Shown here in pieces: positions 3,969 through 59,451 of a DNA stretch of 64,000 bases (within the stretch, counting starts at the first letter, position 1; the number at the start of each line of letters is the position of its first letter). Below the pieces are notes generated by a model that was not told the DNA's origin, did not search any database, and saw nothing but the letters and a program-made list of their open reading frames with translations. The translations under genes and the position numbers were made by a program. Source of the DNA: Candidatus Binatia bacterium (GTDB taxonomy: Bacteria; Desulfobacterota; Binatia; UBA9968; JAJDTQ01); the NCBI GenBank assembly GCA_022823055.1, contig JAJDXX010000235.1:1308-65307 (forward strand). The letters run 5' to 3'.

Positions 3969-3979
3969 CGCCGCGCCGG

Positions 3980-6216: not shown

Positions 6217-6218
6217 GG

Positions 6219-6989: not shown

Positions 6990-7018
6990 CTGCGTAACCC
7001 CATGCAAGTGTCCACGGG

Positions 7019-7762: not shown

Positions 7763-7819
7763 TGTGAAGACCCGAAAGGTGGCAGCCCGGGGGCTGCACC
7801 AGTGCCGTGTCCCACGACA

Positions 7820-8377: not shown

Positions 8378-8399
8378 CTGTCACCACCTACGGACCTGG

Positions 8400-9131: not shown

Positions 9132-9162
9132 TCGATGGGACCCTGGTGAATGCTGGCGGCCT

Positions 9163-9768
9163 CTAGTCCTTCATCCCTTCGCCGACCGAGTAGCGGACGA
9201 AACGCCGAACGCGGATGTTCTCCCCCAAGCGCGCGACGGCGTCCTGGATCAGGTCCTTCACGCGGCGGGTGGGTTCCTTGATGAAGGCCTGCTCCATGAG
9301 GCACGCGTCCTCGTAGAAGCGCTCCATCTTGCCGTCAACGATCTTGTCCAACACGGCCGCGGGCTTGTTGAGCTCCTCGGCCTGCTGCCGGTAAATGGAC
9401 CGTTCCCGATCCAGCTCCTCTTCGCCGACGTCCTCGCGTTGTACGTAACGCGGGTTGGCCGCGGCGATCTGCATCGAGATGTCCTTCACCAGCGCCTGGA
9501 ACTCCTCCGTCCGGGCCACGAAGTCGGTCTCGCAGTTCACCTCCAACAGAACCCCGATCTTGCTGCCGCCGTGGATGTACGCACCCACCAGGCCTTCGCT
9601 GGCCTCGCGCTCCGACTTGCGCGCCGCCAGCGCGAGCCCCTTCGCCCGCAGATGGTCCACGGACTTCTCGAAGTCACCCTCGCATTCCAGGAGGGCCTTC
9701 TTGCAGTCCATGAAACCCGCGCCGGTCTTATCTCGCAGCTCCTTGACTAGACTCGCGTCGATGGCCAT
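9163..9768 (-). CDS. tsf: Translation elongation factor Ts (short, ~200-aa form)
   Basis: [41 protein letters not shown]... (UBA-like N-terminus). Lies downstream of rpsB. Confidence 0.95.
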
Positions 9769-9774
9769 GCTCTC

Positions 9775-10749
9775 TCAACTCCCAACCACGGTAGCGTCCG
9801 TGGACTTCTCTCCGTCCGCATTCTCCTGAACTTCCTCGACCGCCGGCGCTGCCGGCGACGACTCGGGGGCCGCCGCCTGCTCCGCCGCGCCCGGTTCGGC
9901 TGGTGCTTGCGCCGGCGGCGCTTCCGGAGACGGCTCCGCCACCGCTTCGTCCGCCGCGGATTCGCCGGCCGCTTCGTCTCCGGCCGACTCGCCTTCCTCC
10001 GCTTCCTCGGCCCGGGCGGCTTCCTCGGCGCGCGCGGCTTCGGCCTCCATGCGCGCTTGGTCGCCGAGCGCCTGGCCCTCTCTCACCGCCTCGGCCATCA
10101 GGCTGCAGAACAGCCGGATGGCGCGTATGGCGTCGTCGTTGCCGGGTATCTTGTAATCCACCAGATCCGGATCGCAGTCGGTGTCGATGATCGCGATCAC
10201 CTTGATGCCGAGCTTGCGCGCCTCGCGCACCGCGATGGCTTCATGCCCGGGATCGATGATGAACACAGCGTCCGGCAGCTTCTTGATGTCCTTGATGCCG
10301 CCCAGGGCGCGCTCCAGCTTGGCGCGCTCGCGGCTGTGGGCGAGCATTTCCTTCTTGGTGAGGGCCTCGACGATCTTGGGATCGTTGGCCATCTCCTCGA
10401 GTTTCTTGAGGCGTTCGATGCTCTGACGCACGGTCTGGAAGTTCGTCAACGTGCCGCCCAGCCAACGATGGTGGACATAGGACATGCCGCAGCGTTCGGC
10501 TTCTTCCCTCACCGAGTCCTGCGCCTGCTTCTTGGTGCCCACGAAAAGGATGTGGCCTCCGGCCGTGATCAAGTCGCGCACCTGGGCGCAAACGTCCTTG
10601 ACCATCTTCACCGTCTGCTGGAGGTCGATGATGTGAATCCCGTTGCGCGCCCCGAAAATGTAGGGCTTCATCTTGGGATTCCAGCGACTGGTCTGGTGCC
10701 CGAAATGGACCCCGGCTTCCAGAAGCTGCTTCATGGATATTTCCATCAT
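9775..10749 (-). CDS. rpsB: 30S ribosomal protein S2 with a ~75-aa Ala/Glu/Pro-rich C-terminal tail
   Basis: [33 protein letters not shown]... aligns with the S2 N-terminus. The tail is ...[31 protein letters not shown]...[13 protein letters not shown]... Confidence 0.96.
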
Positions 10750-10928
10750 AGTGCCGAAACCTCGATTGATACGAACGTCAACATACTCTTCTCTCGCGCA
10801 TTAGTCAGTGGGCTGAGGTGACTGCCCCGGCGGCCCCGCCCAAGCTGCCGGGATGGAGAAAAACTCGAAGGGCTATTAACAAAATTGGTACGGCCACGCA
10901 AGGGAATGCCGGACGGCCGGACAGGACG

Positions 10929-12293
10929 CTAGGTGTTCATGGACTCCAGGAATTCCTTGTTGTCCTTGGTCCCGTGGAGCTTGTCGATGAGAAACTCCAT
11001 GGCCTCCACCACATTGAGCTGCGACAGCACCTTGCGCAGGATCCAGATGCGGTTGAGATCCTCCTTGGGGATCAGCAGCTCTTCCTTGCGGGTGCCGGAC
11101 TTGTTGATGTCCACGGCCGGGAACACGCGCTTGTCCATCAGCCTGCGGTCGAGGTTGATCTCCATGTTGCCGGTTCCCTTGAACTCCTCGAAGATGACCT
11201 CGTCCATGCGGCTTCCCGTATCGATCAGCGCGGTGGCGATGATGGTGAGGCTGCCGCCGTCCTCGATGTTGCGGGCCGCGCCGAAGAACTTCTTGGGCTT
11301 GTGCAGCGCGTTGGAGTCGACGCCGCCGGAGAGGATCTTGCCGCTCGGCGGCACCACCGTGTTGTAGGCCCTGGCCAGGCGCGTGATGCTGTCGAGGAGG
11401 ATGATGACGTCCTTGCCGTGCTCCACGAGCCGCTTGGCCTTCTCGATGACCATCTCCGCCACCTGCACGTGGCGCGTCGCGGGCTCGTCGAAGGTGGAGC
11501 TCACCACTTCGCCGATCACCGACCGCTGCATGTCGGTGACCTCCTCGGGGCGTTCGTCGATGAGCAGGACGATGAGGACCGCGTCCGGATGGTTGTGGGC
11601 GATGGCCTTGGCCATGTTCTGCAGCATCATGGTCTTGCCCGTGCGCGGCGCCGCCACCACCAGCCCGCGCTGCCCCATGCCGATGGGCGTCAGCAAGTCG
11701 ATGAAGCGGGTCGTGTACTCTTCCGGGTCGTGCTCCAGGCTGATGCGCTTGTCGGGATAGAGCGGGGTCAGGTTGTCGAAGAGGATCTTGTCGCGCACCT
11801 TGTCCGGATCGCCGTTGTTGATGCTCTCCACCTTCAACAGCGCGAAATACCGCTCGCCGTCCTTCGGCGGACGGATCTGGCCGGAGATGATGTCGCCCGT
11901 GCGCAGGCCGAAACGGCGGATCTGGCTCGGCGAGACGTAGATGTCGTCGGGGCCCGGGAGGTAGTTGTAGTCCGGCGCGCGCAGGAAGCCGAAACCGTCG
12001 GGCAAGGTCTCCAGCACGCCCTCTCCGTACACGTAACCGTTCTTCTCGGTCTGCGCCTGCAGGATCGCGAAAATCAGATCCTGCCGCCGCATGTTCGCCG
12101 CGCTCTCGATGCTGAAGCCTTTGCCGATGTTGGCCAGCTCGGCGATCTTCTTGGACTTGAGCGAGCTCAGGTTCAGGCCGTTCTGATGCACAAGGTCGGG
12201 CGCGGGAGCCGGCCGGTTTCTGCGGTGGGTGGGTGCGGAGTCTGCCTTGGTGTCGCTTTCCGCCACTGCGGAGCGCGTCCGAACGTTAGCCAT
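10929..12293 (-). CDS. rho: Transcription termination factor Rho
   Basis: ATG at 12293 with AAGGAAG SD; the track ORF starts at an upstream TTG (12308). Walker A ...[12 protein letters not shown]... and the N-terminal RNA-binding region ...[14 protein letters not shown]... A ~35-aa basic N-terminal extension is present. Confidence 0.96.
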
Positions 12294-13544: not shown

Positions 13545-14432
13545 TCAAGCGCCCAGGGACTGGAGCCTCTCGCGCGCCTTTCCCGCTTCCTCGGAATCGG
13601 GATACCGGTTGATGACTTCCTGGAGGACGAGCCTGGCGTCGACACGATTCCCAAGCTCGGCGAAAGCGTACCCGATCTTGAGCCACGCCGCGGGCGCCTT
13701 GTCGCCGTCGGGATATTTCTTCCGCACCACGTCGAACTCCAGGATGGCCTCGTCGAACTCCTGGAGCGCGTAATGGCTCTCGCCGATCCAGTATTGTGCG
13801 TTGTCGGTCAAAGGGCTGTCCGGATGTTTTTCGACGAACTGCTTGAACTGTTCGATGGCGCCGCGAAAGTCCCTTTCCCGCAGCCGTTTCCATGCGTTCT
13901 CGTAGTCCTGTTGAAACGTGGGCGCCTCGGGTTCGGGGCGTGGAGCCGGACGCGCCACCTGCGGAAGCCCGCCCGGGGCGGCCGGCGCCTGGGGCGGTTC
14001 GGCAGTCGGTTCGGCCTCGGGAGGGCGCGGCGCGCCCTGGAGAACGGCGTCGCGCAGAAGCCGGAGTTCGTCCTCGCGCACCTTCAGGAGATCCCGTTGC
14101 GCGCGCACTTCCGACTCGAGCGCCGCCAGCCTGCGATCGATCTCCGTGGCGTTCCCGGCCGCGCCCCCGCTTCCGTTGCGCAGTTCCTGGAGATTCCCCT
14201 CGACGGTGTTCATGCGGTTTTGCATGGCCGTGACCTCGGCCCGGGTATCCGCCAACTGGGTGCGCGCCTGATCGAGCTCCGCCTTCAAGGCGTTGATCAC
14301 CGCCCACTCGCCCTCGGTCAACTGTGCCTGGACGGGAGGCGCCGGCGCCGCGTGATAGTCGACGGTACAACCCCACGCCGAGACAAGCGACAGAACGACC
14401 AACCATGTACGGACAACGATTCGCATGGACAT
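13545..14432 (-). CDS. cpoB: Tol-Pal system protein CpoB/YbgF (coiled coil + TPR), lipoprotein-type signal
   Basis: Signal/lipobox ...LVSAWGC. Coiled-coil region, then a TPR C-terminus ...AQYWIGESHYALQEFDEAILEFDVVRKKYPDGDKAPAAWLKIGYAF... Last gene of the tol-pal row. Confidence 0.85.
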   Translation of the reverse strand: MSMRIVVRTWLVVLSLVSAWGCTVDYHAAPAPPVQAQLTEGEWAVINALKAELDQARTQLADTRAEVTAMQNRMNTVEGNLQELRNGSGGAAGNATEIDRRLAALESEVRAQRDLLKVREDELRLLRDAVLQGAPRPPEAEPTAEPPQAPAAPGGLPQVARPAPRPEPEAPTFQQDYENAWKRLRERDFRGAIEQFKQFVEKHPDSPLTDNAQYWIGESHYALQEFDEAILEFDVVRKKYPDGDKAPAAWLKIGYAFAELGNRVDARLVLQEVINRYPDSEEAGKARERLQSLGA

Positions 14433-14524
14433 TCACTCTGGCAGGACAGGGAGCGCGAAAGGTTCCGGTGCCGGGCGTCGCGAATCGCGAGCGTCGTTCG
14501 CGACGCGGGACACGGATTGGGTGA

Positions 14525-21248: not shown

Positions 21249-21335
21249 GCGAGGATGGCGGAATAGGCAGACGCGCTAGCTTGAGGGGCTAGTGCCAGCA
21301 ATGGCGTGGGGGTTCAAGTCCCCCTCCTCGCACCA
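21249..21335 (+). tRNA. tRNA-Leu (anticodon GAG), CCA encoded
   Basis: Cloverleaf read by eye. Acceptor GCGAGGA/TCCTCGC, anticodon stem CTAGC/GCTAG with loop TTGAGGG, long variable arm, T-arm GGGGG-TTCAAGT-CCCCC, and A-CCA end. The secG then tRNA-Leu(GAG) order matches secG-leuU of E. coli. Confidence 0.93.
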
Positions 21336-38389: not shown

Positions 38390-38515
38390 GTCATTCCCGC
38401 ACCCCGCCGTCATTCCCGCGAAAGCGGGAATCCAGGAGTGCAGAGGGCCGGGCGGCGTCCCCGCCTCACCCCGCCTGGATTCCCGCTTTCGCGGGAATGA
38501 CGGAAGGTGGGGCGG
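38390..38515. repeat. Nested-palindrome intergenic repeat, copy A (arms CCGTCATTCCCGCGAAAGCGGGAATCCAGG / reverse complement)
   Basis: Left arm 38407-38436 and right arm 38474-38503, a perfect 30-bp inverted repeat with a 37-bp spacer. Each arm contains its own TTCCCGC-GAAA-GCGGGAA hairpin. An extra GTCATTCCCGC half-site lies at 38390. Gives the SFPRKRES/IPAFAGMT pseudo-peptides in the track. Confidence 0.7.
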
Positions 38516-46932: not shown

Positions 46933-48237
46933 ATGGAAGACAAGACCGTATCCACCCGTGAGATACTGGACACCCTGAACGAGGTGCGTTCCCGGACCCT
47001 GGGCTTGGTGGAAGATCTGTCGGGCGAGCAACTCACCGTGCCCATGCTGAACATCGTCAATCCCCCGCTCTGGGAGATCGGGCACGTGTCCTGGTTTCAC
47101 GAGCGGTGGGCGCTTCGGCATCTGCGCGGCCGCGACCCCATCATCTCCAACGGCGACGAGCTCTACGACTCCGCGGCGGTGCGCCACGACACCCGCTGGG
47201 TGCTGGCGCTGCCGCCCCTGGCGGAAACCCTCGCCTACAAGGAGCGCGTGCTGCGGCAGATCAGCGAGGAGTTGCCCGCCGAGCGGCTGAGCCCGGAGGA
47301 AACCTACTTCCACAAGCTGGTCATCTTCCACGAGGACATGCACGCGGAGGCCATGACCTACACGCGCCAGACCCTGGGGTATCCGCCGCCTCCGTTCATG
47401 GGCGAGCCCAGGGCCGTGTCCGGCGGCTCCTGCCCCGGCGACGTGGAGGTGCCGGGCGGCGAGTTCGTTCTCGGCGGCACTCCGGACCTTCCCTTCGTCT
47501 TCGACAACGAGAAGTGGGGCCACCCGATAACCGTGGTGCCCTTCCGCATCGCCCGCGCCCCGGTGACCAACCAGGAGTTCGCAGCGTTCGCCGACGACGG
47601 AGGGTACGGGGACCCGCGCTGGTGGAGCGAAGACGGCTGGAGTTGGCGGCAGGCCGAGGGCGCGACGTACCCCGTCTACTGGCGACGGGAGGCGCCGGGA
47701 CGTTGGCAAGAGCGGATATTCAACCGGTGGGGGTCGCTCCAGGCGGAGTTGCCGGTGATCCACGTCAACTGGTACGAGGCCGAGGCGTACTGCCGGTGGG
47801 CCGGGCGGAGGCTGGCGACGGAGACGGAGTGGGAGATGGCGGCGGCCGTGGACCCGGCCGGCAAAAAGGAGCCGGGAGCAGCCAAGCGGGGCTATCCCTG
47901 GGGCGAAGCGCCGCCCGACCCGTCCTGCGGCAACCTCGACTGGGCCGCCGGAGGCCGGCTGCCGGTGGACGCGCTTTCGGCCGGCGACAGCGCCGCCGGC
48001 TGCCGGCAGATGATCGGCAACGTCTGGGAGTGGACGGCCGACGCCTTCCACCCCTATCCCGGCTTCGTCCGGGACCCCTACAAGGAATACTCCGAGCCCT
48101 GGTTCGGCGACCGCAAGGTGCTGCGCGGAGGCTGCTGGGCCACCCGCTCCCACCTGATCCGCAACACTTGGCGGAACTTCTTCACGCCGGACCGGCGCGA
48201 CGTGCTGGCGGGGTTCCGGACGTGCGCGCGGGACTGA
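46933..48237 (+). CDS. EgtB/SenA-family non-heme iron enzyme (DinB-like N-domain + FGE-sulfatase/SUMF1 C-domain): hercynine C-S or C-Se bond-forming sulfoxide/selenoxide synthase
   Basis: 434 aa. ...NPPLWEIGHVSWFHERW... (DinB His ligands), ...FHEDMHAE..., C-terminal ...VNWYEAEAYCRWAGRRLATETEWE...GNVWEWT...RGGCWAT... (FGE-sulfatase fold). Confidence 0.8.
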   Translation: MEDKTVSTREILDTLNEVRSRTLGLVEDLSGEQLTVPMLNIVNPPLWEIGHVSWFHERWALRHLRGRDPIISNGDELYDSAAVRHDTRWVLALPPLAETLAYKERVLRQISEELPAERLSPEETYFHKLVIFHEDMHAEAMTYTRQTLGYPPPPFMGEPRAVSGGSCPGDVEVPGGEFVLGGTPDLPFVFDNEKWGHPITVVPFRIARAPVTNQEFAAFADDGGYGDPRWWSEDGWSWRQAEGATYPVYWRREAPGRWQERIFNRWGSLQAELPVIHVNWYEAEAYCRWAGRRLATETEWEMAAAVDPAGKKEPGAAKRGYPWGEAPPDPSCGNLDWAAGGRLPVDALSAGDSAAGCRQMIGNVWEWTADAFHPYPGFVRDPYKEYSEPWFGDRKVLRGGCWATRSHLIRNTWRNFFTPDRRDVLAGFRTCARD

Positions 48238-48295: not shown

Positions 48296-49285
48296 TTGGA
48301 AAACGACTTGGCACGGAAGAACACCCAAACGACCCGAATCGCCCTCGTAACGCCGGCCGGCCCCACCCGCCGCACGGGCAACCGTATCTCGGGCAACAGG
48401 TGGGCGCGAATCCTGCGGGCGTCGGGACACCGGGTCATCCCCCTGGATCGCTACGAGCGCGAGCGTTGCGACGTGTTGATCGCGCTCCACGCCCGGCGCA
48501 GTCATGACTCCGTCCGGCGGTTCCGCGATCTGAACCCCGGCAAGCCGATAGTGGTGGTCCTGACCGGAACCGACCTGTACCGCGACATCCATGAGGACGA
48601 AGATTCACGGGAGTCCCTCCGGCTGGCCGACCGCCTGGTAGTGCTGCAACGCAAGGGGCTTGACGAGCTCGAGCCGGCGCTGCACGAGAAGACTTGGGTC
48701 ATCTACCAATCCGCGCCGGCCAGCCCCGGGCAGCCCGGCAATCCCGTAAAACAGTTCACCGTGGCGGTGGTGGGCCACATGCGCCCCGAGAAGGACCCGT
48801 TCCGGACAGCCATGGCAGTACGCTCGTTGCCGCGCGCGTCGCGGATCCGCGTCGTTCACATCGGCGCCGCGTTCGGCGACAACTTTCTGCGCCGCGCCGA
48901 GCAGGAGGCCGAGCGCAACCCGCGCTACCGCTGGGTCGGCGAGTGGCCTCACTGGAAGACGCGCCGGTTCATGGCCCGCAGCCACATCCTGTCCATCACC
49001 TCACGCATGGAAGGCAGTTCCAACGTCCTGTGCGAGGCGCTGGCCTCGGGGGTGCCCGTGGCAGCCTCCCGGATCTCGGGATTGATGGGAACCCTGGGCG
49101 ACGACTATCCGGGCTACTACGAGCTCGGCGACACCGCGGGGCTCAAACGCCTGCTGCTCCGCGCCGAGACCGACCCGGCGTTCTACGAGAGCTTGGCACG
49201 GCACTGCGCCGAGGCGGCACCGCTGGTGAACCCGGAGCGAGAGATCTGGACCTGGCAGGGGTTGGTCCGTGAAGTGACGCGTTGA
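48296..49285 (+). CDS. GT-B (GT4-like) glycosyltransferase, candidate selenosugar/thiosugar synthase (SenB-like)
   Basis: 329 aa, TTG start. ...RIALVTPAGPTRRTGNRISGNRWARILRASGHRV... EX7E-type motif ...SRMEGSSNVLCEALASGVPV... Lies immediately downstream of the EgtB/SenA-family gene, as in described sen clusters. The SenB assignment is inference. Confidence 0.6.
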   Translation: MENDLARKNTQTTRIALVTPAGPTRRTGNRISGNRWARILRASGHRVIPLDRYERERCDVLIALHARRSHDSVRRFRDLNPGKPIVVVLTGTDLYRDIHEDEDSRESLRLADRLVVLQRKGLDELEPALHEKTWVIYQSAPASPGQPGNPVKQFTVAVVGHMRPEKDPFRTAMAVRSLPRASRIRVVHIGAAFGDNFLRRAEQEAERNPRYRWVGEWPHWKTRRFMARSHILSITSRMEGSSNVLCEALASGVPVAASRISGLMGTLGDDYPGYYELGDTAGLKRLLLRAETDPAFYESLARHCAEAAPLVNPEREIWTWQGLVREVTR

Positions 49286-49295
49286 CCACGCGTCG

Positions 49296-49445
49296 AACCC
49301 CTCCGTCATTTGTCCTGTTTCCCGGTCATTCCTAGTTCCCCGTCATTCCCGCGAAAGCGGGAATCCATGGGTCCTGGCGGGGCGCTACAGCGGTGTTCCC
49401 CCGCTCCACCCCGCCTGGATTCCCGCTTTCGCGGGAATGACGGGA
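49296..49445. repeat. Nested-palindrome intergenic repeat, copy B
   Basis: GTCATT half-sites at 49305, 49325 and 49342. Left arm ~49339-49367 (ends CCATGG instead of CCAGG). Right arm 49414-49443 is identical to copies A and C and is preceded by the same CACCCCG. Confidence 0.7.
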
Positions 49446-49542
49446 GGGGGTACGGGAATGAAGGAAGGGGGACGCGGGAATGCCCGAGAGGGACCGGGTT
49501 GACGGAAAGGGGCCGGGTCGACGGAAAGGGTTTGGGGTTGGT

Positions 49543-49602
49543 GGCAGCGGTATGGGGTTGACGGCAGCGGTATGGGGTTGACGGCAGCGGTGCAGGGTCG
49601 AT
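49543..49602. repeat. Tandem repeat, 3 x 20 bp (GGCAGCGGTATGGGGTTGAC; third unit diverged)
   Basis: Units at 49543-49562, 49563-49582 and 49583-49602. Preceded by two further short duplications (GGGACCGGGTTGACGGAAAGG / GGCCGGGTCGACGGAAAGGG). Confidence 0.7.
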
Positions 49603-49623
49603 GGGACGGGCGCGCTGCGAGCC

Positions 49624-50778
49624 TTACGACAGCACCTCGATGAGTTTCTCCGCCACCGTGTCCAGCTCGGCGTGGGTGATGACCAGGGGCGGCAACAACC
49701 TTACCACGGTCGCTCCCGCGGGCAGCGCCAGGACGCCTTTTTCCATGAGGCGCACGAGGTGGGGCTGGGACTTTTCCTTGAGCTCGATGCCGATCATGAG
49801 ACCGAGTTGGCGGATCTCTCTCACCTTCGGCAGGTCCGCGGCCTGAAGCCGTTCCAGCAGGTAGGCGCCCTTCTCCGTTGCGGCCGCGGCCAGCCCTTCC
49901 TCCTCCATGGCGTCGATGGCGGCCAGCGACGCGGCGCACGCGAGCGGGTTGCCGCCGAAGGTGCTGCCGTGGCGGCCGACGGGGACCTCGAGCTTGTCGG
50001 AGCAGAGCACCGCGCCCATGGGGATGCCGCCGGCCATAGCCTTGGCGAGACACAGGATGTCGGGCTCCAAGCCGAAGTGCTCGCAGGCGAACATCTTGCC
50101 GGTGCGGCAGAAGCCGGTCTGGACCTCGTCGATGATGAGGAGGACGCCCCGCTCCCGGCAGAGCTCGCCCACCTGCTCGAAGAACTCGGCCTTGCCGAGG
50201 TTCACGCCGCCTTCGCCCTGGACGATCTCCAACATCACGGCGGCGGTGTTGTCGTTCACCTTCTCTTCCAGCTTGGCGAAGTTGTTGAAGGGGGTGTACT
50301 GGAAGCCTTCCACGATGGGCACGAAGGGCTCGCGGTATTCCTTGGTGAAGGTGGCGCTCAGCGCCCCCATGGTGCGGCCGTGGAAGCCGCGCATGGCGCA
50401 CACGAACTCCTGCTTGCCGGTGGCGAAGCGGGCGAACTTGATGGCCGCCTCGATGGTCTCGGTGCCCGAGTTGCACAGGAAGGCGCGGTTCAGGTTGCCG
50501 GGGGCGATGCCGGCCAGTCGCTCCAGCAGGCGCGCCTTGACGTCGTTGTAGAAGACCCCGGAGCAGCTCAGGAGCCTCTGGGCCTGCTCGGACACCGCCT
50601 GCACCACCTTGGGGTGGCAGTGTCCCAGGTTGGCAACGCCGTGGCCGGCGACGCAGTCGATGTACTCCCGGCCCTCGTGGTCCCAGACCCTGGCGCCCTC
50701 GCCGCGCACCAGCACGATGTCGCGCTTGGGATAGACGTCGAACTCGTGCCGTTGCTGCAACTCCTTGAAATCAGTCAC
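49624..50778 (-). CDS. lysJ: Class-III aminotransferase of the LysW pathway (LysJ/ArgD-type acetylornithine/[LysW]-aminoadipate semialdehyde transaminase)
   Basis: 384 aa. ...VRGEGARVWDHEGREYIDCVAGHGVANLGHCHP..., ...LLIIDEVQTGFCRTGKMFA... Last gene of the lysW operon. Confidence 0.85.
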   Translation of the reverse strand: MTDFKELQQRHEFDVYPKRDIVLVRGEGARVWDHEGREYIDCVAGHGVANLGHCHPKVVQAVSEQAQRLLSCSGVFYNDVKARLLERLAGIAPGNLNRAFLCNSGTETIEAAIKFARFATGKQEFVCAMRGFHGRTMGALSATFTKEYREPFVPIVEGFQYTPFNNFAKLEEKVNDNTAAVMLEIVQGEGGVNLGKAEFFEQVGELCRERGVLLIIDEVQTGFCRTGKMFACEHFGLEPDILCLAKAMAGGIPMGAVLCSDKLEVPVGRHGSTFGGNPLACAASLAAIDAMEEEGLAAAATEKGAYLLERLQAADLPKVREIRQLGLMIGIELKEKSQPHLVRLMEKGVLALPAGATVVRLLPPLVITHAELDTVAEKLIEVLS

Positions 50779-51566
50779 TGGATCACCGTTCCTTTCCCGG
50801 CCAGGGCGTCCCGCACTGGATGTTCCGTGCGGCCGTCGCTCATGATGACCTTTTCCGCGCCTTCCTCGAACAGCTTCCGGAGCGCCAGCATCTTGCGCTT
50901 CATGCGCCCCTCCACCTGGGCTTCCCGCTGCTCCAGCTCGGGCGCGCGGATCTCGGGCACCACCGTGCTCTCGTCGTCCTTGTCGGCGAGAAAGCCCGGC
51001 GCCTCGATGAGCTGCAGCACCACCTCGGCGTGGAAGGCGGCCTGGAGCACGTTGATGATGTCGTCGTTCTCCGAGTTGATGGCGGTGTGGCGTTCGTCGA
51101 TGATGGGAATCGACAGCACCGGCGCGTAGCCGCCGTCGAGCAGCAATTGGAACAGCTCCTTGTTGGCGCTCCGGGGCTTGCCCGAGAAGTCCCGCACGAT
51201 AAGGGTCTTGCCGTTCTTCCGCACCCGGATGCCCTTGTTGCGCTGTCCCTGGATGGCCCGCCCGTCGATGCCGGAGAGGCCCACGGCGTTCACGCCGTTC
51301 TGCTGCAGCAGCTCGACGATGCGCTTGTTCTGCACGCCCGCGTAGCCCATCAGGATGGCGTCCAGCGCCGCCTTGTCGGACAGCACGCTGGTGTAGCCCG
51401 ACACCGACGTCACCACCTGGGTCGGGTTGCCGAGCTTGGCCGCGATGGCGTCCCGCACCGCGTTGGCGCCGTGCACCACGATGAAAGGGGCGGACACCTC
51501 GGCCAGGTCTTCGGCGATGCCGGGCAGGTTGATGTCGCTGCCGCCGCCGATCTTCACGAGTATCAT
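50775..51566 (-). CDS. lysZ: [LysW]-aminoadipate/[LysW]-glutamate kinase (amino-acid kinase family, LysZ/ArgB-like)
   Basis: Inner start MILVKIGGGSDINL...FIVVHGANAV... The ATG overlaps the stop of the upstream Ntn gene and the stop overlaps the lysJ ATG. Confidence 0.85.
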   Translation of the reverse strand: MILVKIGGGSDINLPGIAEDLAEVSAPFIVVHGANAVRDAIAAKLGNPTQVVTSVSGYTSVLSDKAALDAILMGYAGVQNKRIVELLQQNGVNAVGLSGIDGRAIQGQRNKGIRVRKNGKTLIVRDFSGKPRSANKELFQLLLDGGYAPVLSIPIIDERHTAINSENDDIINVLQAAFHAEVVLQLIEAPGFLADKDDESTVVPEIRAPELEQREAQVEGRMKRKMLALRKLFEEGAEKVIMSDGRTEHPVRDALAGKGTVIQ

Positions 51567-52201
51567 CGAAGTTGCTCCACCGTGTCGTTGGGGATGATGC
51601 GCCACGATCCGTTTTTGGGCACGGTCTCCGAGCTCACCACGAAGCCGCCCTCGTCGTCCCGGGCGCGAAGCCTGAAATACTCCGGTTGCTCATTGTAGAC
51701 CGATCCCACGTAGACGTTCTCCCGGTCGGCGATGACCATGTTCATGGCGCGCACGTAACGGGTTCTGCGGACGATGACGTCCATCCCTTTCCGCATGGCC
51801 GCCGCTATGTCGCCCTTGTCGAAGCGCTTGACGAAGTTGAACACCTTCTCCGCGCCGATGCGGCCCTCCGCCGCGATCCGGACGCCCCGCAACTCGCCGT
51901 TGAACGCGAACACGTAACGGTCGTCCGAGAACGGCATGTTGTTCTCCACCACGATGTTCTCGTCCCGGAACGCGCTGCGAGCGTGGCCCACCAGCAGCGT
52001 GGTAGCGCCGAACTGGTCCAGGTCGTCCTCCCAGATGGGCTTGATGTTGTGGTAGACCCTCCACTCCCCGTCGACGATGTAGGCGCAGCCCCAGCCGTGC
52101 CCCTGGTACTCGGGGCTGTTGCGGGCGATACCGGCGAGATCCGCCAGGCGTTCGCCGATGTCGAACGACTCACGGTTCTTGACGCACATGAGGCGGCACA
52201 T
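51563..52201 (-). CDS. Class-II (Cys-Ntn) glutamine amidotransferase-like hydrolase, YafJ/EgtC type
   Basis: 212 aa beginning MCRLM (Cys2 nucleophile after Met removal). ...GHGWGCAY..., ...LVGHARSAFRDENIVVENNMPF..., ...FAFNGELRG... Embedded between lysY and lysZ. Confidence 0.8.
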   Translation of the reverse strand: MCRLMCVKNRESFDIGERLADLAGIARNSPEYQGHGWGCAYIVDGEWRVYHNIKPIWEDDLDQFGATTLLVGHARSAFRDENIVVENNMPFSDDRYVFAFNGELRGVRIAAEGRIGAEKVFNFVKRFDKGDIAAAMRKGMDVIVRRTRYVRAMNMVIADRENVYVGSVYNEQPEYFRLRARDDEGGFVVSSETVPKNGSWRIIPNDTVEQLR

Positions 52202-52213
52202 GGCGCTTGCCTG

Positions 52214-53260
52214 CTAGGGGTGGAGCCCCGGGAACTCGAGGCCCTCCGTTTCCTCGAAGCCGTTCATGAGGTTGAAGGCCTGGACCGCCTGGCCGGCGGC
52301 GCCCTTCATCAGGTTGTCGAGGGCGCTCAGCACCACCAGGCGGTCCGAGCCCTTCTCCTTCTGGAAGCCGATGTCGCAGTAGTTGGTGCCGCTCAAGAGC
52401 TTGGGCTCCGGGTAGCGGTAGATGCCGTCGGCCTCCTTGACAATGCGGATGAAAGGCTCCTTGCCGTAGGCCTCGCGGTAGATCTTCCACACGTCCTTCT
52501 CTTCCAGCGGCTCGCGGAGGAAGAGGTGCGCCGTCGCCAGCACACCCCGCACCATCTCGATGGAGGTGGCGGAGAAGTAGAACCGGATCGGCTCGCCGAA
52601 ACCCAGCTCCTGGTAGATCTCGGCGCTGTGGCGGTGCAGGGTGGGCATGAACGAACGCACCGCGCCGCTCCGTTCCGGGTGGTGGGACGCGTCGCTGGCG
52701 GCGTTGCCGCCCTCGCTGGAGCCCACCTTGACCTCCACCACCGTGCGTTCGCGGTCCACCAACCCCTTCCTGAAGAACGGGTAGACGCCGAGGATCGTGG
52801 CGGTGGCGTTGCAGCCGGCGCCGGTGACGAAGTTCGCTCCCCGAATCTCGTCGCGGTGCAGCTCCGGGACCCCGTAGACGAACTCCTTCATGAGCTCCGG
52901 GCGCTGGTGCGGCTTGCCGTACCAGCGCTGGTACTCGTCGGCGCCGTTCAGCCTGAAGTCGGCGCTCAGGTCCACCAGCTTCGGGGCCAGCTCCCGGAAC
53001 GAATCGATACGCTCCTGGGCCTGACCGTGGGGCAGGCAGAGGAACAGCAGGTCGCACGGGTTCAGCTCGTCCATCTTGCAGAAGCGAAGCTGCGTCCGCT
53101 TGCGCAGGTTGGGGTGGGCCTTGAACACGAACTTGCCGGCGAAGCGCTCCGAGGTGACCTCGCACACCTCCACCCGCGGGTGCCCGAGCAGCAGCCGCAG
53201 AAGCTCCCCCCCGGTGTAGCCGGACGCTCCGACGATGGAGACCTTCAGCTTGTCGGCCAC
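52214..53260 (-). CDS. lysY: [LysW]-aminoadipyl/glutamyl-phosphate reductase (ArgC/LysY family)
   Basis: 348 aa. MADKLKVSIVGASGYTGGELLRLL... Active-site region ...VTGAGCNATATIL... Confidence 0.88.
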   Translation of the reverse strand: MADKLKVSIVGASGYTGGELLRLLLGHPRVEVCEVTSERFAGKFVFKAHPNLRKRTQLRFCKMDELNPCDLLFLCLPHGQAQERIDSFRELAPKLVDLSADFRLNGADEYQRWYGKPHQRPELMKEFVYGVPELHRDEIRGANFVTGAGCNATATILGVYPFFRKGLVDRERTVVEVKVGSSEGGNAASDASHHPERSGAVRSFMPTLHRHSAEIYQELGFGEPIRFYFSATSIEMVRGVLATAHLFLREPLEEKDVWKIYREAYGKEPFIRIVKEADGIYRYPEPKLLSGTNYCDIGFQKEKGSDRLVVLSALDNLMKGAAGQAVQAFNLMNGFEETEGLEFPGLHP

Positions 53261-53314
53261 GACTGCCCCGTTTCCTTCCGGTCCGTCCCGCTCATCGATT
53301 CCCGCGCAGCCGAA

Positions 53315-54187
53315 TCAGGCTGCGCCCCTGCGTTCCTGCTCCTCACGGCCCACCTTGAGCACATGCTCGACGACGAGGCCGGGGATGTTCACCCCGGTGG
53401 TGTCGATGCTGTTCCGGAACTCCATGGTGTAGTTCACTTCGTTGACAAGCAGTCCGTCCGGGGTCTCGAAGAGATCCACGGCGACGATGCCGCCTCCCAC
53501 CGCGCGGCACGCGCCAACCGAGAGGTCCCGCAGCTCGTCCGTCACCGGGCAGTTCTCGGCGCGCCCGCCCCGGGCCGTGTTGGTGATCCAGTGGTCGCTG
53601 TAGCGGTAGATGGCGGCCACGCAGTCGTCGCCGATGACGAAGCTCCGGATGTCGCGCCCGGTCTTCTCGACGTACTGCTGGATGTAGAAGATGGAGTGGT
53701 GGTAGCTGCCCAGGATCGCCTTGTGCTCCAGGATGGTCTCCGCGGCGTCCCGGTCGTTCACCTTGGCCAGCAGCCGGCCCCAGGAACCCACCGCGGGTTT
53801 CAGCACCACGGGATAGCCCATCTCCTCGATGGCCTCCAGGGTGGATTCCTCGGTGAAGGCGATGCGCACCTCGGGCTGGGGCACGTCGTGCTCCTGGAGG
53901 TGCACCGAAGTGAGGATCTTGTCGCCGCACACGGTGGCCACCGACGACGCGTTCACGCAGCGCACGCCGGCGCTCTCGAACAGCCGCAGGCCGTGCAGCG
54001 CCCGGGAGTGGTTGATGCACCGCTCCAGCAGCACGTCCAGGTCGAACTCGTCCCGGCCCAGGTTGAACGAGAGCTTCCGGTCGTCGATCATTTGGAGCTC
54101 CACGCCGGGATGCTTCCGGAACTCCTTGATGAGGAGCTTCTCCTCGGGCCGGACCAGTGAATGCAGCAAACCGATCTTCAAGCTCAT
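53315..54187 (-). CDS. lysX: ATP-grasp ligase LysX (RimK family; attaches the substrate to the LysW C-terminus)
   Basis: 290 aa. [23 protein letters not shown]..., ...[17 protein letters not shown]..., ...[26 protein letters not shown]... Confidence 0.88.
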
Positions 54188-54348
54188 TCCCCCCAGTCTT
54201 CCTCTTCCGAGGGCGCCTCTTCCACCGTGGGCGGATCGAGGCTGGTGACCTCCAGCTCGGTGCCGCAGTCGGCGCAGGCGATCAACTCGCCTTCCACCGC
54301 GTCGTCCTCCAGTTCAAATTCCGCTCCGCAAACCGGACACTCAACCAT
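54184..54348 (-). CDS. lysW: Amino-group carrier protein LysW (54 aa; below the ORF-track size cut-off)
   Basis: Own translation: [54 protein letters not shown]. Zinc-ribbon CPVC...CADC plus an acidic tail ending EDWGE (LysW hallmark). GGGAGG SD. The stop overlaps the lysX ATG. Confidence 0.85.
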
Positions 54349-54394: not shown

Positions 54395-54665
54395 CGCCTG
54401 GTTCGTCATTTCCAGTTGCGCCCGCTCGCGTCATTTCCAGCGGCCTCCCTCCACATTCGCGACGGCGCCCCTCCGTCATTCCTTGCGGCGCCTCTCCGTC
54501 ATTGCCAGCGCTTCTCCGTCATTCCCGGCCTCCCTCCGTCATTCCCGCGAAAGCATGCCCTCGACCCCGATCGGGGGCGGGAATCCAGGGGCGGAGCAGG
54601 TTGCGGCGGCACTTCCCGCCACCACCCCGCCTGGATTCCCGCTTTCGCGGGAATGACGGAGGAGA
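54395..54665. repeat. Nested-palindrome intergenic repeat, copy C, with six upstream GTCATT half-sites and a 22-bp insertion in the left arm
   Basis: GTCATT at 54405, 54430, 54475, 54498, 54518 and 54538. The left arm is split: ...CCGTCATTCCCGCGAAAGC[atgccctcgaccccgatcgggg]GCGGGAATCCAGG. Right arm 54630-54659 is intact. Confidence 0.7.
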
Positions 54666-54803
54666 GGCGGAATTGACGGCCGTCCGATGATACCGCCGTC
54701 CGACGACACGAGCGCTGGACGATACCGCGATGCGAGCGCTGGACGATACCAGCGTCGAACGATACGGCCTTCGGATACGACCTTCGGCGGATCGCGGGTT
54801 GTC

Positions 54804-56192
54804 TTACGACAGCACGGCCTTGGCGACCGTGGTGATGGCGTTCCGCAGGATCGCGACGATCTCGTCGATCTGCTCTTTCGTGACCACCAGCGGCGGGCAC
54901 ACCGCCAGGGCGTGGGTGCCGCATACCCGCAGCAACAGGCCGTTGGCGAGGCACTCGTCGTAGACCTGCCGGGGCACCTGCTGCTCCACCGCGAAGGACT
55001 CCCGGGTCTCCTTGTCCTTCACCAGCTCCACCGCGGCGATGAGCCCCCGGCCACGCACCTGCCCCACCATGGGCAGCTCCGAAAGCGCCCCGAGCCGTTC
55101 CTGCATGTACGCCCCCACCTCCGCGGCCCGCTCCACCAGCCGTTCCCGCTCGATGATGTCGAGGTTGGCCAGCGCCGCGGCGCACACCACCGGATGCCCG
55201 GTGTAGGTGTAGCCGTGGTAGAACGCGTCGTCGGCCCTGGCCAGCAGCGTCTGGAAGATTTCTTCCCGGAACAGCATGGCGCCCATGGGCAGGTAGCCGC
55301 TGGTGATGCCCTTGGCGGTCACCAGCACGTCGGGCGTGACGCCCTCGCCCGCGCACGCGAACAGGCTGCCGGTGCGTCCGAAACCGGTGATCACCTCGTC
55401 ACAGACCATCAGGATGCCATGCCGGTCGCAGATCTCCCGGATCCTTGCGAGCCACCCTTCGGGCGGCACGATGACCCCGCCCACGCCCTGCACGGGCTCG
55501 GCCACGAAGGCCGCTATGGCATCCGCGCCCTCCCGCTCCACCAACCGCTCCAGCTCGTCGGCGCAGGCAAGCTTACAGTCCGGCCAGGTCTTCCCCAGCT
55601 CGCAGCGGTAGCAGTGGGGCCGCGCCATGTGATGCACGTCCGGGAGGCCGGGCGCCATCTGCTCGTTGAACAGCGGGATGCCGGTCAGCATGGCGGCACC
55701 GCTCGACGAGCCGTGATAGCCCTGGTTCAGGGTGACGAACCGCGTCCGTTGGGGCTGCCCCATGGCCTTCCAGTAGGCCCGCACCAGCCGGATCATGCTC
55801 TCGTTGGTCTCCGAGCCCCCCGACGTGAACACGACCCGGGTCAACCCCTCCGGCGCCATCTCGGCGAGCCGGGACGCCAGCCGGACGGTGGGCTCCGAGG
55901 TGGGCCCGATGAGCGTGGGCGCGTAGGCGAGCCGGTCCATCTGGTCCGCCACCGCCCGGGTGATCTCCTTCCGGCCGTGGCCCACGTGGACGTTCCACAG
56001 GGTGGAGAGGCCGTCGATGTAGCGCTTGCCCAAGGAGTCCCAGAAATAGACCCCTTCGGCCCGGACGAACACCGGCAACCCGTCCTTTTGATGCTTCGAC
56101 AGCGGCACGAAGCCATGGACGAGATGGTCCCGGTCGGCGCGGCTCATGGCCGCGGTGCGTTCGAGGTCAACGTTTTCTTGAGCTTTCGTCAT
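54804..56192 (-). CDS. Class-III (omega-type) aminotransferase
   Basis: 462 aa. ...FVRAEGVYFWDSLGKRYIDGLSTLWNVHVGHG..., ...ILMVCDEVITGFGRTGSLFA..., ...YTYTGHPV... Confidence 0.85.
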   Translation of the reverse strand: MTKAQENVDLERTAAMSRADRDHLVHGFVPLSKHQKDGLPVFVRAEGVYFWDSLGKRYIDGLSTLWNVHVGHGRKEITRAVADQMDRLAYAPTLIGPTSEPTVRLASRLAEMAPEGLTRVVFTSGGSETNESMIRLVRAYWKAMGQPQRTRFVTLNQGYHGSSSGAAMLTGIPLFNEQMAPGLPDVHHMARPHCYRCELGKTWPDCKLACADELERLVEREGADAIAAFVAEPVQGVGGVIVPPEGWLARIREICDRHGILMVCDEVITGFGRTGSLFACAGEGVTPDVLVTAKGITSGYLPMGAMLFREEIFQTLLARADDAFYHGYTYTGHPVVCAAALANLDIIERERLVERAAEVGAYMQERLGALSELPMVGQVRGRGLIAAVELVKDKETRESFAVEQQVPRQVYDECLANGLLLRVCGTHALAVCPPLVVTKEQIDEIVAILRNAITTVAKAVLS

Positions 56193-56261
56193 GGGTCCGA
56201 TGTACGCCGGACGCCGCGGAAGGTCGGTGTCTCCGGCCTCGCGTCATCGGCCGCCGGCGCC

Positions 56262-57293
56262 TTAGAGTCCGTAGTAGCGCTTCGGGTTGTCGCACAGGAT
56301 CTTCTTGCGCACATCGGGGTTGATGTCCTCCCGTGCGAAGAAGTCCGGCAGATCGTGGAAGAAGTCCGCGCGCGCCCGCTCGTGGGGATAGTCCGAGGCC
56401 CACAGCACCTGGTCCCCGCCGAGCTGCTCCAGCACGTACGGCAGGCTCCGTTCGTCCACCTCGCAGGTGAAGAAGATGTTGCCGCCGCGGATGATGTCGC
56501 TGGGGCGCTGCTTCACCGCCAGCGCGTGGCCGCGCCGCTCCCAGTTCTCGTCCAGCGCGTCCATCATGAACGGCACCCAGCCGGTGCCGCACTCCAGGTA
56601 GGCCACGCGCAGGTTGGGGAAGCGGTCGTACACGCCGGCGTTGATCATGCTCATCATCTGCACCATCTGCGGCATGGCGTGCTCCAGCGGCCTCGCCTCG
56701 GCCAGACTCTCGAAGATGTCCAGGCCAAGGCCCGCCACCGGACCGCCGTGGACCGCCAGGGCGCAGTCGAGCCGCTCGGCTTCCGCGTAGATCGGGTCGA
56801 ACTGGCGGCCGCCCAGCCCCACCAGCGGCGCCATCACCGACGGGATCACCCCGGCCACCATGCCCAGCTCCTCCACGCACCGGCGCAGCTCCGCCACCGC
56901 GGCGTCGATGTCCTGGACCGGCAGCAGCGCCACCCCCTTGAGCCGGTCCGACTGGCGGCCGAAACAGTCGTACAGCCAGTCGTTGTAGGCCTGGGCCACG
57001 GCCACCGCCCAGCCCTTGTTGCGGATCTGGCCGTGGAACAGCGCGTTGCTGGGATAGAGGATGGTCTGCTCGATCTTCGACTCGTCCAGGAAGCTCAGCC
57101 AGTTGGCCGCGTCCGGCACCTCGGCCTTGTGGCGGGACGACATGCCGCGCATCCAGCCGTCGGTAAGCGGGAAGAGGTAGTACTCGCGGGTCCAGTCCTT
57201 CTCGTTCCACGGAGCCGGCAGGTAGTTGCGCAGGTCCTTGTCCTGGTCCACCACGTGGCCGTCGGCGTCGATGATAGCGTGTTCACATTCCAT
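56262..57293 (-). CDS. Amidohydrolase-2 family protein (second paralogue in the window)
   Basis: 343 aa. [16 protein letters not shown]..., ...[12 protein letters not shown]... Confidence 0.8.
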
Positions 57294-57333
57294 GATCGGT
57301 CTCCCCTGCCGGATCCGAGGCGCGCCGCGTGCT

Positions 57334-58803
57334 TCAGCGGATCATCAGCCGGCCGGACTGGCCGGAGTAGTTGATGAAGACGGTCTTGAGCTCGGTGAAG
57401 AAGTTGACGCCCTCCTCGGACATCTCCCGCTCGCCCACGCCGGTGGCCTTGATGCCGCCGAACGGGAGCTGTGCCTCGCCGCCGATGGTGGGCTCGTTCA
57501 CGTGCACCATGCCCGTCTCCACCTCCTCCACGAAGCGCATGACCTTGTCCACGTCCTGGGTGAAGATGGAGGTGGTGAGGCCGAAGTCCACCGAGTTGGC
57601 GAACTGGATGGCTTCATCGAGGTCCGAGGCCGCCGCCACCGAAAGCACCGGACCGAAGATCTCCTCCCGGAAGATGCGCATGTCCGGGGTGACGTCGTCG
57701 AACACCGTGGGCTCGACGTAGTAGCCGTGGTCCAGCCCCTTGGGGGTATTGCCGCCCACCACCAGCCGGGCGCCCTCCTGCTTGCCGATCTCGATGTACT
57801 CCAGGTCGGTCTTCCACTGGCCCTCGTCCACCGCCGGCCCCATGTCCACCTCCGCGTCCAGGCCCGGGCCCACGCGGATCTTCTTCGCGTGTTCTTCCAG
57901 CCGGGCCACCAGCTCGCTCCGGGTGTCGCCGATGGCGATGACCCGGGAGGTGGCGGTGCAGCGCTGGCCGGTGGAGCCGAAGGCGCCGTCCCGTATCGCC
58001 ACCGCCGCCTTGTCGAGGTCGCAATCGGGCATGACGATGACCGCGTTCTTGCCGCCCATCTCGCAGGTGACCTTGGCGCCCCGGGAGGCGGCCTTGACGT
58101 AGAGGTCGCTGCCGATCTCGTTGGAGCCGGTGAACGACACCACCGGGATGCGCCGGGAGTTGACGATGGTTTCGCCCACGTCGCCGCCGGAGCCCACCAC
58201 CACGTTGAAGACGCCCTTGGGAATGCCGGCTTCCTCGTAGACCTCCGCCAGGAGGCCCGCCGTGGACGGGGTCAGGGACGCCGGCTTGAGCAGCACCGCG
58301 TTGCCCGCCACCAGCGCCGGCGCCGACTTCCACACCGGTATCGCCCAGGGGAAGTTCCACGGCGCGATGAGCCCCACGACGCCCATGGGCTGGCGGATGG
58401 TGTAGGTGAAGGTGTCCCGGGCCTCGGACGGGAGCGTCTTGCCGCCCAGCCGGTAGCCGGCGCCGGCGTTGTACTCCATGAGCGAGATCCCCTTGAGCAC
58501 CTCGCCCCGTGCCTCCTTGAAGATCTTCCCTTCCTCCCGGGTCATCATCTCGGCAATCTCGTCCACGCGCCGGCGCGCGATGTCCGCGGCGCGCCAGATC
58601 GCCCGGCCGCGCTCCGGTCCCGGCGTCTTGCGCCAACCCTGGAACGCCTCCGCTGCCGCGTCGATGGCCCGTTCCGTGTCCGCCGCCGTGGCCATGGGGA
58701 ACTCGGCGATGACGTCGCGGGTGTCGGCGGGGTTGACGTTGCGGATCTGTCTTTCGGAGTTGGGCTGGTACCATTCTCCGTTGATGTAGGAACCGGTTTG
58801 CAT
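57334..58803 (-). CDS. NAD(P)-dependent aldehyde dehydrogenase
   Basis: Inner start [14 protein letters not shown]... with AAGGAGA SD (ATG 58803). ...FTGSNEIG..., ...[10 protein letters not shown]..., ...GQRCTATSR..., ...EEIFGPV... Confidence 0.92.
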
Positions 58804-58971
58804 GGGTTGTGTCTCCTTGGGGGCCGTGTCGTGGGTCGCGGAGGGGTCTTGCGGCGCAAGACACCGGCGTTGGACGTGTGTCGGATTAAAAAAGACATGG
58901 GGTTCCGTGTCAAGCGTTCCGGGCATTTGCGGCGCCGGGCAGGCGCCCTCTATACTCTTGAACGGGCAACC

Positions 58972-59451
58972 ATGAAGCACGTCACCATCTATACCGACGG
59001 AGCCTGCATCGGGAACCCAGGGCCAGGGGGTTACGGTGCCGTGCTCCTCTATGAAGGCAACCGCCAGGAACTGAGCGGAGGGTACCGCCGGACCACCAAC
59101 AACCGCATGGAGATCAGGGCCGTGCTGGCCGGGCTCCGGTCCCTGAAAGAACCGTGCCGGGTGACCGTGTTCAGCGACTCCCGGTACGTCGTGGACGCCA
59201 TGTCCAAGGGCTGGGCAGAGAGTTGGCGCGACAAGGGGTGGAGGAAGCGCGACAAGACCCCCGCCCTGAATCCCGATCTCTGGGAGGAGATGCTGGACCT
59301 GTCGGAGCGCCACCAGGTCGAGTTTCGCTGGGTCAAAGGCCACGCGGGCGACCCGGAGAACGAGCGATGCGACGAGCTGGCGGTGGCAGCGGCGAGCGGA
59401 GGGGATCTGGCCCATGACGAGGTTTATGAGAAGAAGGGCGCAAAACGTTGA
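58972..59451 (+). CDS. rnhA: Ribonuclease HI
   Basis: Last 159 codons of track ORF 57226..59451. [25 protein letters not shown]...[10 protein letters not shown]...VFSDSRYVV...[18 protein letters not shown]. Confidence 0.95.

Follow-up and report, generated by a model that had tools for sequence, protein, structure and literature searches.

In the LysW pathways of Thermus and Sulfolobus, LysX joins the amino group of the substrate to the γ-carboxyl of the C-terminal Glu of LysW, an amino-group carrier protein (AmCP), and LysK frees the product. The operon considered here lies on the minus strand of a 64,000-nucleotide stretch of DNA from a Candidatus Binatia bacterium (contig JAJDXX010000235.1, positions 1,308 to 65,307; the whole stretch is denoted as the window), which is ~95% identical to an uncultured Candidatus Binatia metagenome-assembled genome (MAG). 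It consists of six closely packed genes in the order lysW-lysX-lysY-Ntn-lysZ-lysJ (49624-54348), the fourth of which encodes an amidohydrolase of the cysteine N-terminal nucleophile (Cys-Ntn) type. This Ntn protein is probably a non-homologous [LysW]-lysine hydrolase that replaces LysK, a member of the M20 peptidases.

LysW, LysX, LysZ, LysY, and LysJ are orthologous to the proteins of the canonical LysW/AmCP pathways (Thermus, Sulfolobus, Thermococcus), and the EDWGE tail of the carrier is common to both. Unlike the canonical systems, the Ntn operons are devoid of LysK, harbor the Ntn gene either between lysY and lysZ or as the last gene, and in some cases encode a LysW ending in Gln. Some relatives of the operon carry LysX/ArgX pairs together with argG/argH, a composition reminiscent of the bifunctional system of Sulfolobus. 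The reaction proposed for the Ntn protein would be that of LysK (Thermus thermophilus, PDB 5xoy), namely cleavage of the isopeptide between the γ-carboxyl of the LysW C-terminal Glu and the α-amine of Lys or Orn. Sequence, fold, and mechanism are unrelated, LysK being a dinuclear-metal M20 peptidase of ~350 aa and the Ntn protein a Cys-Ntn enzyme of 212 aa with a proposed thioester. The ergothioneine γ-glutamyl amidohydrolase EgtC (PDB 4zfj/4zfk/4zfl) is likewise a stand-alone class-II-amidotransferase-like Ntn domain with an N-terminal Cys, and both enzymes would cut a γ-glutamyl amide. In contrast to EgtC, the Ntn gene occurs without an egtA/egtD context, Gly stands in place of the conserved Asp of ETD[ST]E, and a protein C-terminus rather than a free small γ-glutamyl molecule is the predicted substrate. 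YafJ and its kin (E. coli YafJ; PDB 1te5, 3mdn) share Cys2 and the HxR and NG motifs with the Ntn protein, but are longer (~255 aa) and keep the Asp. To our knowledge, no function has been established for the YafJ group, and we know of no link between it and lysW operons.

The genes of the operon, in the order of transcription, are:
54184-54348, minus strand: lysW, zinc-ribbon amino-group carrier of 54 aa with C-terminal EDWGE (TIGR01206, 70.8 bits, cut-off 53.2; PF21344, Zn_ribbon_LysW, 69.8 bits)
53315-54187, minus strand: lysX, ATP-grasp LysW-aminoadipate ligase; its ATG lies in an ATGA overlap with the lysW stop (TIGR02144, 346.5 bits, cut-off 275.6)
52214-53260, minus strand: lysY, ArgC-type [LysW]-aminoadipyl-phosphate reductase with a GTG start (argC model TIGR01850, 388 bits, above cut-off; Pfam Semialdhyde_dh and Semialdhyde_dhC_1)
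51563-52201, minus strand: Ntn gene, Cys-Ntn amidohydrolase of 212 aa with the N-terminus MCRLM, starting 12 nt past the lysY stop; proposed [LysW]-lysine hydrolase
50775-51566, minus strand: lysZ, [LysW]-aminoadipate kinase; its ATG lies in an ATGA overlap with the Ntn stop (NF010659, 246.7 bits, cut-off 223)
49624-50778, minus strand: lysJ, class-III aminotransferase; its GTG start lies in a GTGA overlap with the lysZ stop (argD-family TIGR00707, 439 bits, cut-off 410)

An initial annotation, made by reading the DNA without database searches, had described six co-directional genes with overlapping ATG starts. The six genes are found at these positions, the five canonical ones being recognized by curated models, and the ATG overlaps of lysX and lysZ stand. 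The overlap of lysJ has to be corrected, as it starts with GTG, which is also the start codon of lysY. A Shine-Dalgarno-like GGGAGG is located upstream of lysW, and the lysX product matches Thermus LysX (3vpd) with E = 1.4e-91. In its longest open reading frame (ORF), lysZ extends to a GTG at 51605; the orthologues match a start at the ATG in position 51566. Against dedicated LysJ models, the lysJ product scores 472.8 bits (NF042418, rank 1) and 365.8 bits (NF045491, rank 6), both under the strict cut-offs. The GC content at third codon positions of the operon genes is 0.90-0.95 and conserved orthologues number in the hundreds, so the genes can be taken as real. Neither a lysine riboswitch nor a promoter or terminator of the operon came up in Rfam, promoter, and terminator scans of the window, and none of the upstream enzymes of the α-aminoadipate (AAA) route (homocitrate synthase, homoaconitase, homoisocitrate dehydrogenase) is encoded within the 64 kb.

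The lack of a LysK/M20 gene in the window, claimed in the initial annotation, was borne out by phmmer searches of the six-frame ORFs with E. coli ArgE and three bona fide LysK proteins as queries, which returned nothing in the 64 kb. The ArgE search is sensitive enough for this purpose, since ArgE picks up Thermus LysK (5xoy) at E = 1.8e-8. With ArgE and the three LysK queries, no M20/LysK gene was detected within ±10 kb in any of the 80 genome loci of the Ntn-anchored survey described below. A second sample was anchored on LysX and comprises 80 metagenome loci without taxonomy, obtained with the LysX/ArgX sequences of Thermus, Thermococcus, and Sulfolobus rebuilt from PDB alignments. Half of these loci (40/80) carry lysY, lysZ, and lysJ, and are distributed as follows:
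Ntn gene only, in every case flanked by lysY and lysZ: 15 loci
LysK only: 21 loci
both: 0 loci
neither: 4 loci

Nineteen of the LysK loci were recognized via ArgE and two more via the true LysK queries; LysK usually follows right after lysJ. Two of the four loci with neither gene stop ≤1 bp from the lysJ match. The seven M20 genes tested all have the [LysW]-lysine hydrolase model NF003367 as their best match (342-421 bits, with five of them reaching the 363-bit cut-off), and all pass TIGR01902. The exclusion of Ntn gene and LysK corresponds to a Fisher p of 1.4e-6 (computed with the initial 19 LysK loci), a value that overstates independence because the operon types form two clades and the sample includes near-duplicate loci. 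In two further loci reached via LysX matches, the Ntn gene is again found in the internal position.

For the Ntn-anchored survey, one genome per GTDB species was scanned and the best 80 of 518 relatives' loci were kept. These represent about ten phyla: Binatia, Ignavibacteria/Melioribacter (including the cultured Melioribacter and Rosettibacter), Calditrichaceae/Caldithrix, Gemmatimonadota, Acidobacteriota, Bacteroidota/Rhodothermaceae, Gammaproteobacteria/Arenicellales, Planctomycetota, KSB1, and a few others. Where the flanks are long enough, the Ntn gene lies immediately after lysY in 66/72 and immediately before lysZ in 70/77 loci, with median gaps of 21 nt (lysY-Ntn) and 11 nt (Ntn-lysZ), and it is the sole conserved non-canonical gene of these lys operons. 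Homocitrate synthase is encoded between lysW and lysX in 24 of the 80 loci, the full upstream AAA set (homocitrate synthase, both homoaconitase subunits, homoisocitrate dehydrogenase) is present in four, and in one locus argG and argH come after two LysX paralogues. The presence of AAA genes, and of argG/argH, therefore places the Ntn operons in primary lysine metabolism, sometimes in that of lysine plus arginine, and not in a secondary-metabolite cluster. As a side observation, a Binatia chromosome (OZ253480.1, locus L016) carries lysY-Ntn-lysZ-lysJ twice in tandem at ~3834-12168, with the second lysZ truncated; the tandem copy stems either from a recent duplication or from misassembly.

A divergent Ntn subfamily in the position of LysK, which the initial annotation had not predicted, emerged from an exhaustive search. 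Its members are ~220 aa long, follow the pattern MCRFL...QGDGWG...HARSASF...NQPY...FNG...GxIGAQK, and lack the Asp as well. The named sources are mostly Patescibacteria (Gottesman-, Roizman-, Levy-, Pace-, and Falkowbacteria), with one Chloroflexi. In five of the six places examined (L167, Gottesmanbacteria by source name; L169, Pacebacteria by source name; L170; L171; P0422), the divergent gene is the last of the operon lysW-lysX-lysY-(hcs, homoaconitase, homoisocitrate dehydrogenase)-lysZ-lysJ-Ntn and starts ≤30 nt from lysJ or overlaps it; this is the slot taken by LysK in the 21 sampled LysK operons. No M20 gene was found near the divergent Ntn gene in these five places. A lysyl-tRNA-synthetase-like gene directly follows it in four of them (class II-type in three, class I family PF01921 in one), and in L167 a YchF-type GTPase gene stands there instead. 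L167 also encodes homocitrate synthase, both homoaconitase subunits, and homoisocitrate dehydrogenase, while L170 and L171 encode homocitrate synthase. The occurrence of two subfamilies in two architectures, both in LysK-less operons and one in the exact position of LysK, is, in our view, the strongest single argument for functional replacement. The lysW operons of these Patescibacteria-dominated contigs are at odds with the general view of these bacteria as unable to make amino acids. A divergent homologue (MCRFLL...) also follows the genes lysW-hcs-lysX-lysY-lysZ-lysJ in a Candidatus Fischerbacteria locus (L084), likewise reached via a LysX match. That gene (13758-14510) contains masked N runs and an insert resembling a repeat just upstream (translations 'CVRPQ...'), explained perhaps by a small mobile repeat or by faulty assembly within the gene.

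Assignment of the Ntn protein to a family is weak when based on sequence alone. GATase_4 (16.6 bits, cut-off 23) and GATase_6 (21.3 bits, cut-off 27) both remain under threshold, the EgtC model TIGR03442 gives 36.5 bits and is thus far under its cut-off of 218.65, and neither NCBIfam release 20 nor Pfam holds a model for the family, with precomputed PF13230 matches on some orthologues. The class-II (Cys-Ntn) amidotransferase-like nature that the initial annotation had read from motifs is nevertheless upheld by the fold predicted with AlphaFold2 (AF2; predicted local distance difference test, pLDDT, 85.6; predicted template modelling score, pTM, 0.86). The Ntn fold is a four-layer α/β/β/α arrangement. 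Foldseek comparison of the model with the PDB placed EgtC at the top (TM score 0.80, 18-20% identity), followed by the uncharacterised YafJ-like 1te5 and 3mdn and then by the glutaminase domains of GlmS, GFAT, and PurF; the E-values of all these matches range from 1e-12 to 1e-6. Full-length homology to YafJ is indicated by hhalign (probability 96.6); YafJ was used as a bridge, as the comparison with a GlmS-only profile was too weak for use (probability 0.8). More than 2,800 relatives of ~212 aa were retrieved by a word-indexed search, labeled in their sources as 'class II glutamine amidotransferase', 'predicted glutamine amidotransferase', or 'hypothetical', and the exhaustive profile search gave 116 clusters (50% identity) at E ≤ 1e-30 and 305 at E ≤ 1e-10.

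The family is conserved at 55-60% identity between phyla. Cys2, Arg3, Arg75 (HARSA), Asn101-Gly102 (FNGEL), and the motif G113-R-I-G116-A-E-K are invariant in all 101 full-length orthologues. Arg75 and Asn101-Gly102 align with Arg73 and Asn98-Gly99 of GlmS. Gly116 (GRIGAEK), according to both profile and multiple alignments, stands opposite the Asp of YafJ 'GETDSEK' and GlmS 'SETDTEV'. This Asp (motif ETD[ST]E) is GlmS Asp123, the binder of the free α-ammonium of glutamine. The machinery for γ-glutamyl amide cleavage is thus intact in the Ntn protein, and the site that reads a free α-amine is gone. The exchange of Asp for an invariant Gly116 is what would be expected if the glutamyl moiety were the C-terminal residue of a polypeptide. 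Net charge and isoelectric point of the family were uninformative as signs of LysW binding (median pI 7.7, range 5.1-11.1). The proposal of the initial annotation that the Ntn protein stands in for LysK as a non-orthologous replacement is supported. Each of its refuting conditions that was put to the data came out in favor of the proposal, with co-occurrence with lysW operons in about ten phyla, mutual exclusion with LysK at the operon level in the LysX-anchored sample, and retention of the N-terminal Cys throughout the full-length orthologues.

Taking gene content, synteny, exclusivity with LysK at the operon level, predicted fold, and conserved residues together, we infer the substrate and the catalytic steps as follows. 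The operon would constitute the second half of the LysW-dependent AAA route to lysine. LysX would link the α-amino group of aminoadipate to the γ-carboxyl of Glu54, the C-terminal residue of LysW, and LysZ, LysY, and LysJ would convert the tethered aminoadipate to tethered lysine as in Thermus and Sulfolobus. Removal of Met1 from the Ntn protein would expose the N-terminal Cys, which could then attack the γ-glutamyl amide of LysW-γ-Lys. Lysine would be released, leaving LysW bound to the enzyme as a γ-glutamyl thioester, with Asn101-Gly102 as the presumed oxyanion hole, and hydrolysis of the thioester by water would yield free LysW. Arg75 is predicted to bind the α-carboxylate of Glu54, which is free, and room for the LysW backbone would be provided by Gly116, which replaces the usual α-ammonium-binding Asp.

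The same Ntn chemistry might deamidate LysW variants encoded with a C-terminal Gln. Twelve of the 65 LysW genes of the Ntn-anchored genome loci, from several lineages, end in EDWGQ instead of EDWGE (L023, L029, L031, L041, L046, L047, L055, L057, L058, L060, L071, L080). EDWGQ was found in four further Ntn-type loci (L086, L089, L103, L105) and in one incomplete, untyped locus (L095), compared with 0/18 LysW genes of LysK-type loci, so that every EDWGQ locus of determinable type is Ntn-type. An ATP-grasp ligase requires a carboxylate, and a C-terminal Gln must therefore be deamidated before LysX can use the carrier. The EDWGQ variants, small in number, suggest a post-translational deamidation of the carrier, which an amidase specific for the γ-amide of the last residue of LysW would carry out; at these numbers, the Ntn protein is a candidate for this activity. 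In its widest form, the proposal states that the Ntn protein alone serves as LysW-releasing hydrolase in about ten phyla, including some Patescibacteria whose lysine pathway would then be complete, and that it also deamidates LysW-Gln 'pro-carriers', the charging site thereby being made by the carrier's own product-release enzyme via a covalent LysW-thioester. This combination is put forward tentatively, with somewhat less than an even chance of being right.

Confinement of the C-terminal-Gln LysW to Ntn-type operons would also fit an accessory role, in which the Ntn protein deamidates LysW-Gln precursors or clears mis-charged or dead-end adducts and an M20 LysK encoded elsewhere releases lysine. 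The LysK searches covered operon neighbourhoods, and lysK of Thermus is unlinked to the main lys cluster. However, ~80% of the Ntn-type operons encode LysW-Glu, for which no maturation is needed, and yet keep the Ntn gene at the conservation stated above. Moreover, the Ntn gene never occurs alongside an in-operon LysK, the 21 LysK-type operons have LysK right after lysJ, and in the sampled operons of the Patescibacteria-dominated subfamily this slot is filled by the Ntn gene. An accessory role is thus considered unlikely. Far less probable is a function as a true glutamine amidotransferase subunit, delivering ammonia from free glutamine to another enzyme of lysine or another pathway. The class-II catalytic Cys, Arg, and Asn-Gly are present and the databases name a 'class II glutamine amidotransferase', but no adjacent synthase domain or partner is conserved, the α-ammonium-binding Asp is an invariant Gly, the amino group is already supplied by LysJ, and the nearest fold is that of the stand-alone hydrolase EgtC, not of GlmS or PurF.

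The initial annotation had offered, as its own alternative, a non-canonical carrier pathway to a non-proteinogenic amino acid, as in the AmCP clusters of Streptomyces, with the Ntn protein acting on that product. AmCP systems have been recruited into secondary metabolism, and no homocitrate synthase is encoded in the window. Orthologous operons, however, hold homocitrate synthase, homoaconitase, and homoisocitrate dehydrogenase, precede lysyl-tRNA-synthetase-like genes, or carry argG/argH; LysX and LysZ score above lysine equivalog cut-offs, and no tailoring enzymes are conserved nearby, so this alternative finds no support and is hardly credible. Least probable of all is that the Ntn protein is the EgtC-type partner of a nearby EgtB-like gene in ergothioneine or selenoneine synthesis and is merely located among lys genes. 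An EgtB-family gene does lie 1.4 kb past lysJ (46933-48237), and EgtC is the top structural match. Against this, that gene and its neighbour score as SenA and SenB and are encoded on the opposite strand, and the selenoneine pathway is not known to need a γ-glutamyl hydrolase; after this scoring, the EgtB-like neighbour was rejected as a functional partner. A SenB-like gene (329 aa, opposite strand, just past lysJ) occurs in 15/80 loci and is absent from 18 listed loci of other lineages, whereas the linkage of the Ntn gene to lys genes spans phyla, and TIGR03442 is matched with only 36.5 bits against a cut-off of 218.65. An egtA/egtB/egtD/egtE context was not encountered for the Ntn gene; the context across phyla is lysW-X-Y-Z-J.

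Several observations weigh against replacement of LysK by the Ntn protein. Compared with the LysZ of the window, the LysZ proteins of Ntn-type loci score 363 bits and those of LysK-type loci 168 bits, corresponding to two separate clades, and several LysX-anchored loci are near-identical; the anticorrelation may hence come from one or a few ancestral events. The absence of LysK from an operon alone proves little, since lysK of Thermus lies outside the main cluster. In the sixth place examined for the divergent subfamily (L168, Chloroflexi), the Ntn gene is unlinked to lys genes. In some Gammaproteobacteria, lysZ/lysJ are not adjacent to the Ntn gene: the MAGs L052, L057, L058, L060, L061, L071, and L080 carry lysY (and lysW and lysX where found) before the Ntn gene, with lysZ/lysJ not following. 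In L057, lysZ and lysJ are located 9 kb downstream, and in L060 the Ntn gene comes directly after lysX. In these Gammaproteobacteria, the first half of the operon is the part that retains the Ntn gene. The confidence of the AF2 model is lowest at residues 110-113, beside the Gly116 motif. Finally, lysine rather than ornithine as the probable product of the Binatia operon is suggested by orthology to hcs-linked operons and by the equivalog scores of LysX and LysZ.

Full-text searches of the literature outside subscription journals retrieved no paper that ties an Ntn or amidotransferase gene to LysW. The genome paper on Melioribacter does not discuss lysine. Two matches on 'lysW/lysX' were discarded, as the names denote unrelated transporter or regulator genes there. 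For Caldithrix abyssi, a LysWXZYJ+Hcs locus of eight genes was reported and lysine synthesis was flagged as a possible non-orthologous displacement (PMC5317091). What would be new is a known LysW pathway with its last step carried out by an unrelated enzyme, for which no prior description was found in the searched literature.

If replacement of LysK by the Ntn protein is correct, LysW-dependent synthesis of lysine, and possibly of ornithine, can end with either of two unrelated enzymes, with the Ntn type occurring as often as LysK in the sampled LysX-bearing metagenome loci. Pathway reconstruction may require LysK, an example being KEGG K05831. Reconstructions of this kind would score the pathway as incomplete, so that lysine auxotrophy could be wrongly assigned to Binatia, Ignavibacteriota, Calditrichota, Gemmatimonadota, some Gammaproteobacteria, and some Patescibacteria; an apparent gap in the lysine synthesis of many uncultured bacteria would be removed. 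The Ntn/class-II amidotransferases would gain a new specificity, the γ-glutamyl amide at a protein C-terminus, and the existence of functional LysW genes ending in Gln would be explained.

Beyond the lysJ end of the operon, two genes for selenoneine biosynthesis converge on it:
46933-48237, plus strand: senA (NF041186, 508 bits, cut-off 420)
48296-49285, plus strand: senB (TIGR04348, 385 bits, cut-off 300)

A SenB-like gene is similarly placed in 15/80 related loci, e.g. in the Binatia locus L012. Just outside both ends of the lys operon lies a palindromic element resembling repetitive extragenic palindromic (REP) sequences, with the core GTCATTCCCGCGAAAGCGGGAATCC, which occurs in five copies in the window (0 expected by chance; 38409-38501, 49339-49444, 54516-54679). 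Tandem repeats of ~20 nt adjoin it (49496-49614, 54463-54545), and spurious ORFs with translations like 'IPAKAGIQ' and 'FRGNDG' probably stem from these repeats. Upstream of lysW, a separate cluster on the minus strand (54804-59415) encodes a second class-III aminotransferase (462 aa), an Amidohydro_2 protein (343 aa), and a 693-aa aldehyde dehydrogenase. The latter is extended at its N-terminus by ~200 aa that remain unmatched; it comes nearest to α-ketoglutaric semialdehyde dehydrogenase, with a score below the cut-off. This cluster is conserved in Binatia loci and is probably catabolic. The only Rfam match of the window at the gathering threshold is a tRNA gene on the plus strand (21249-21332).

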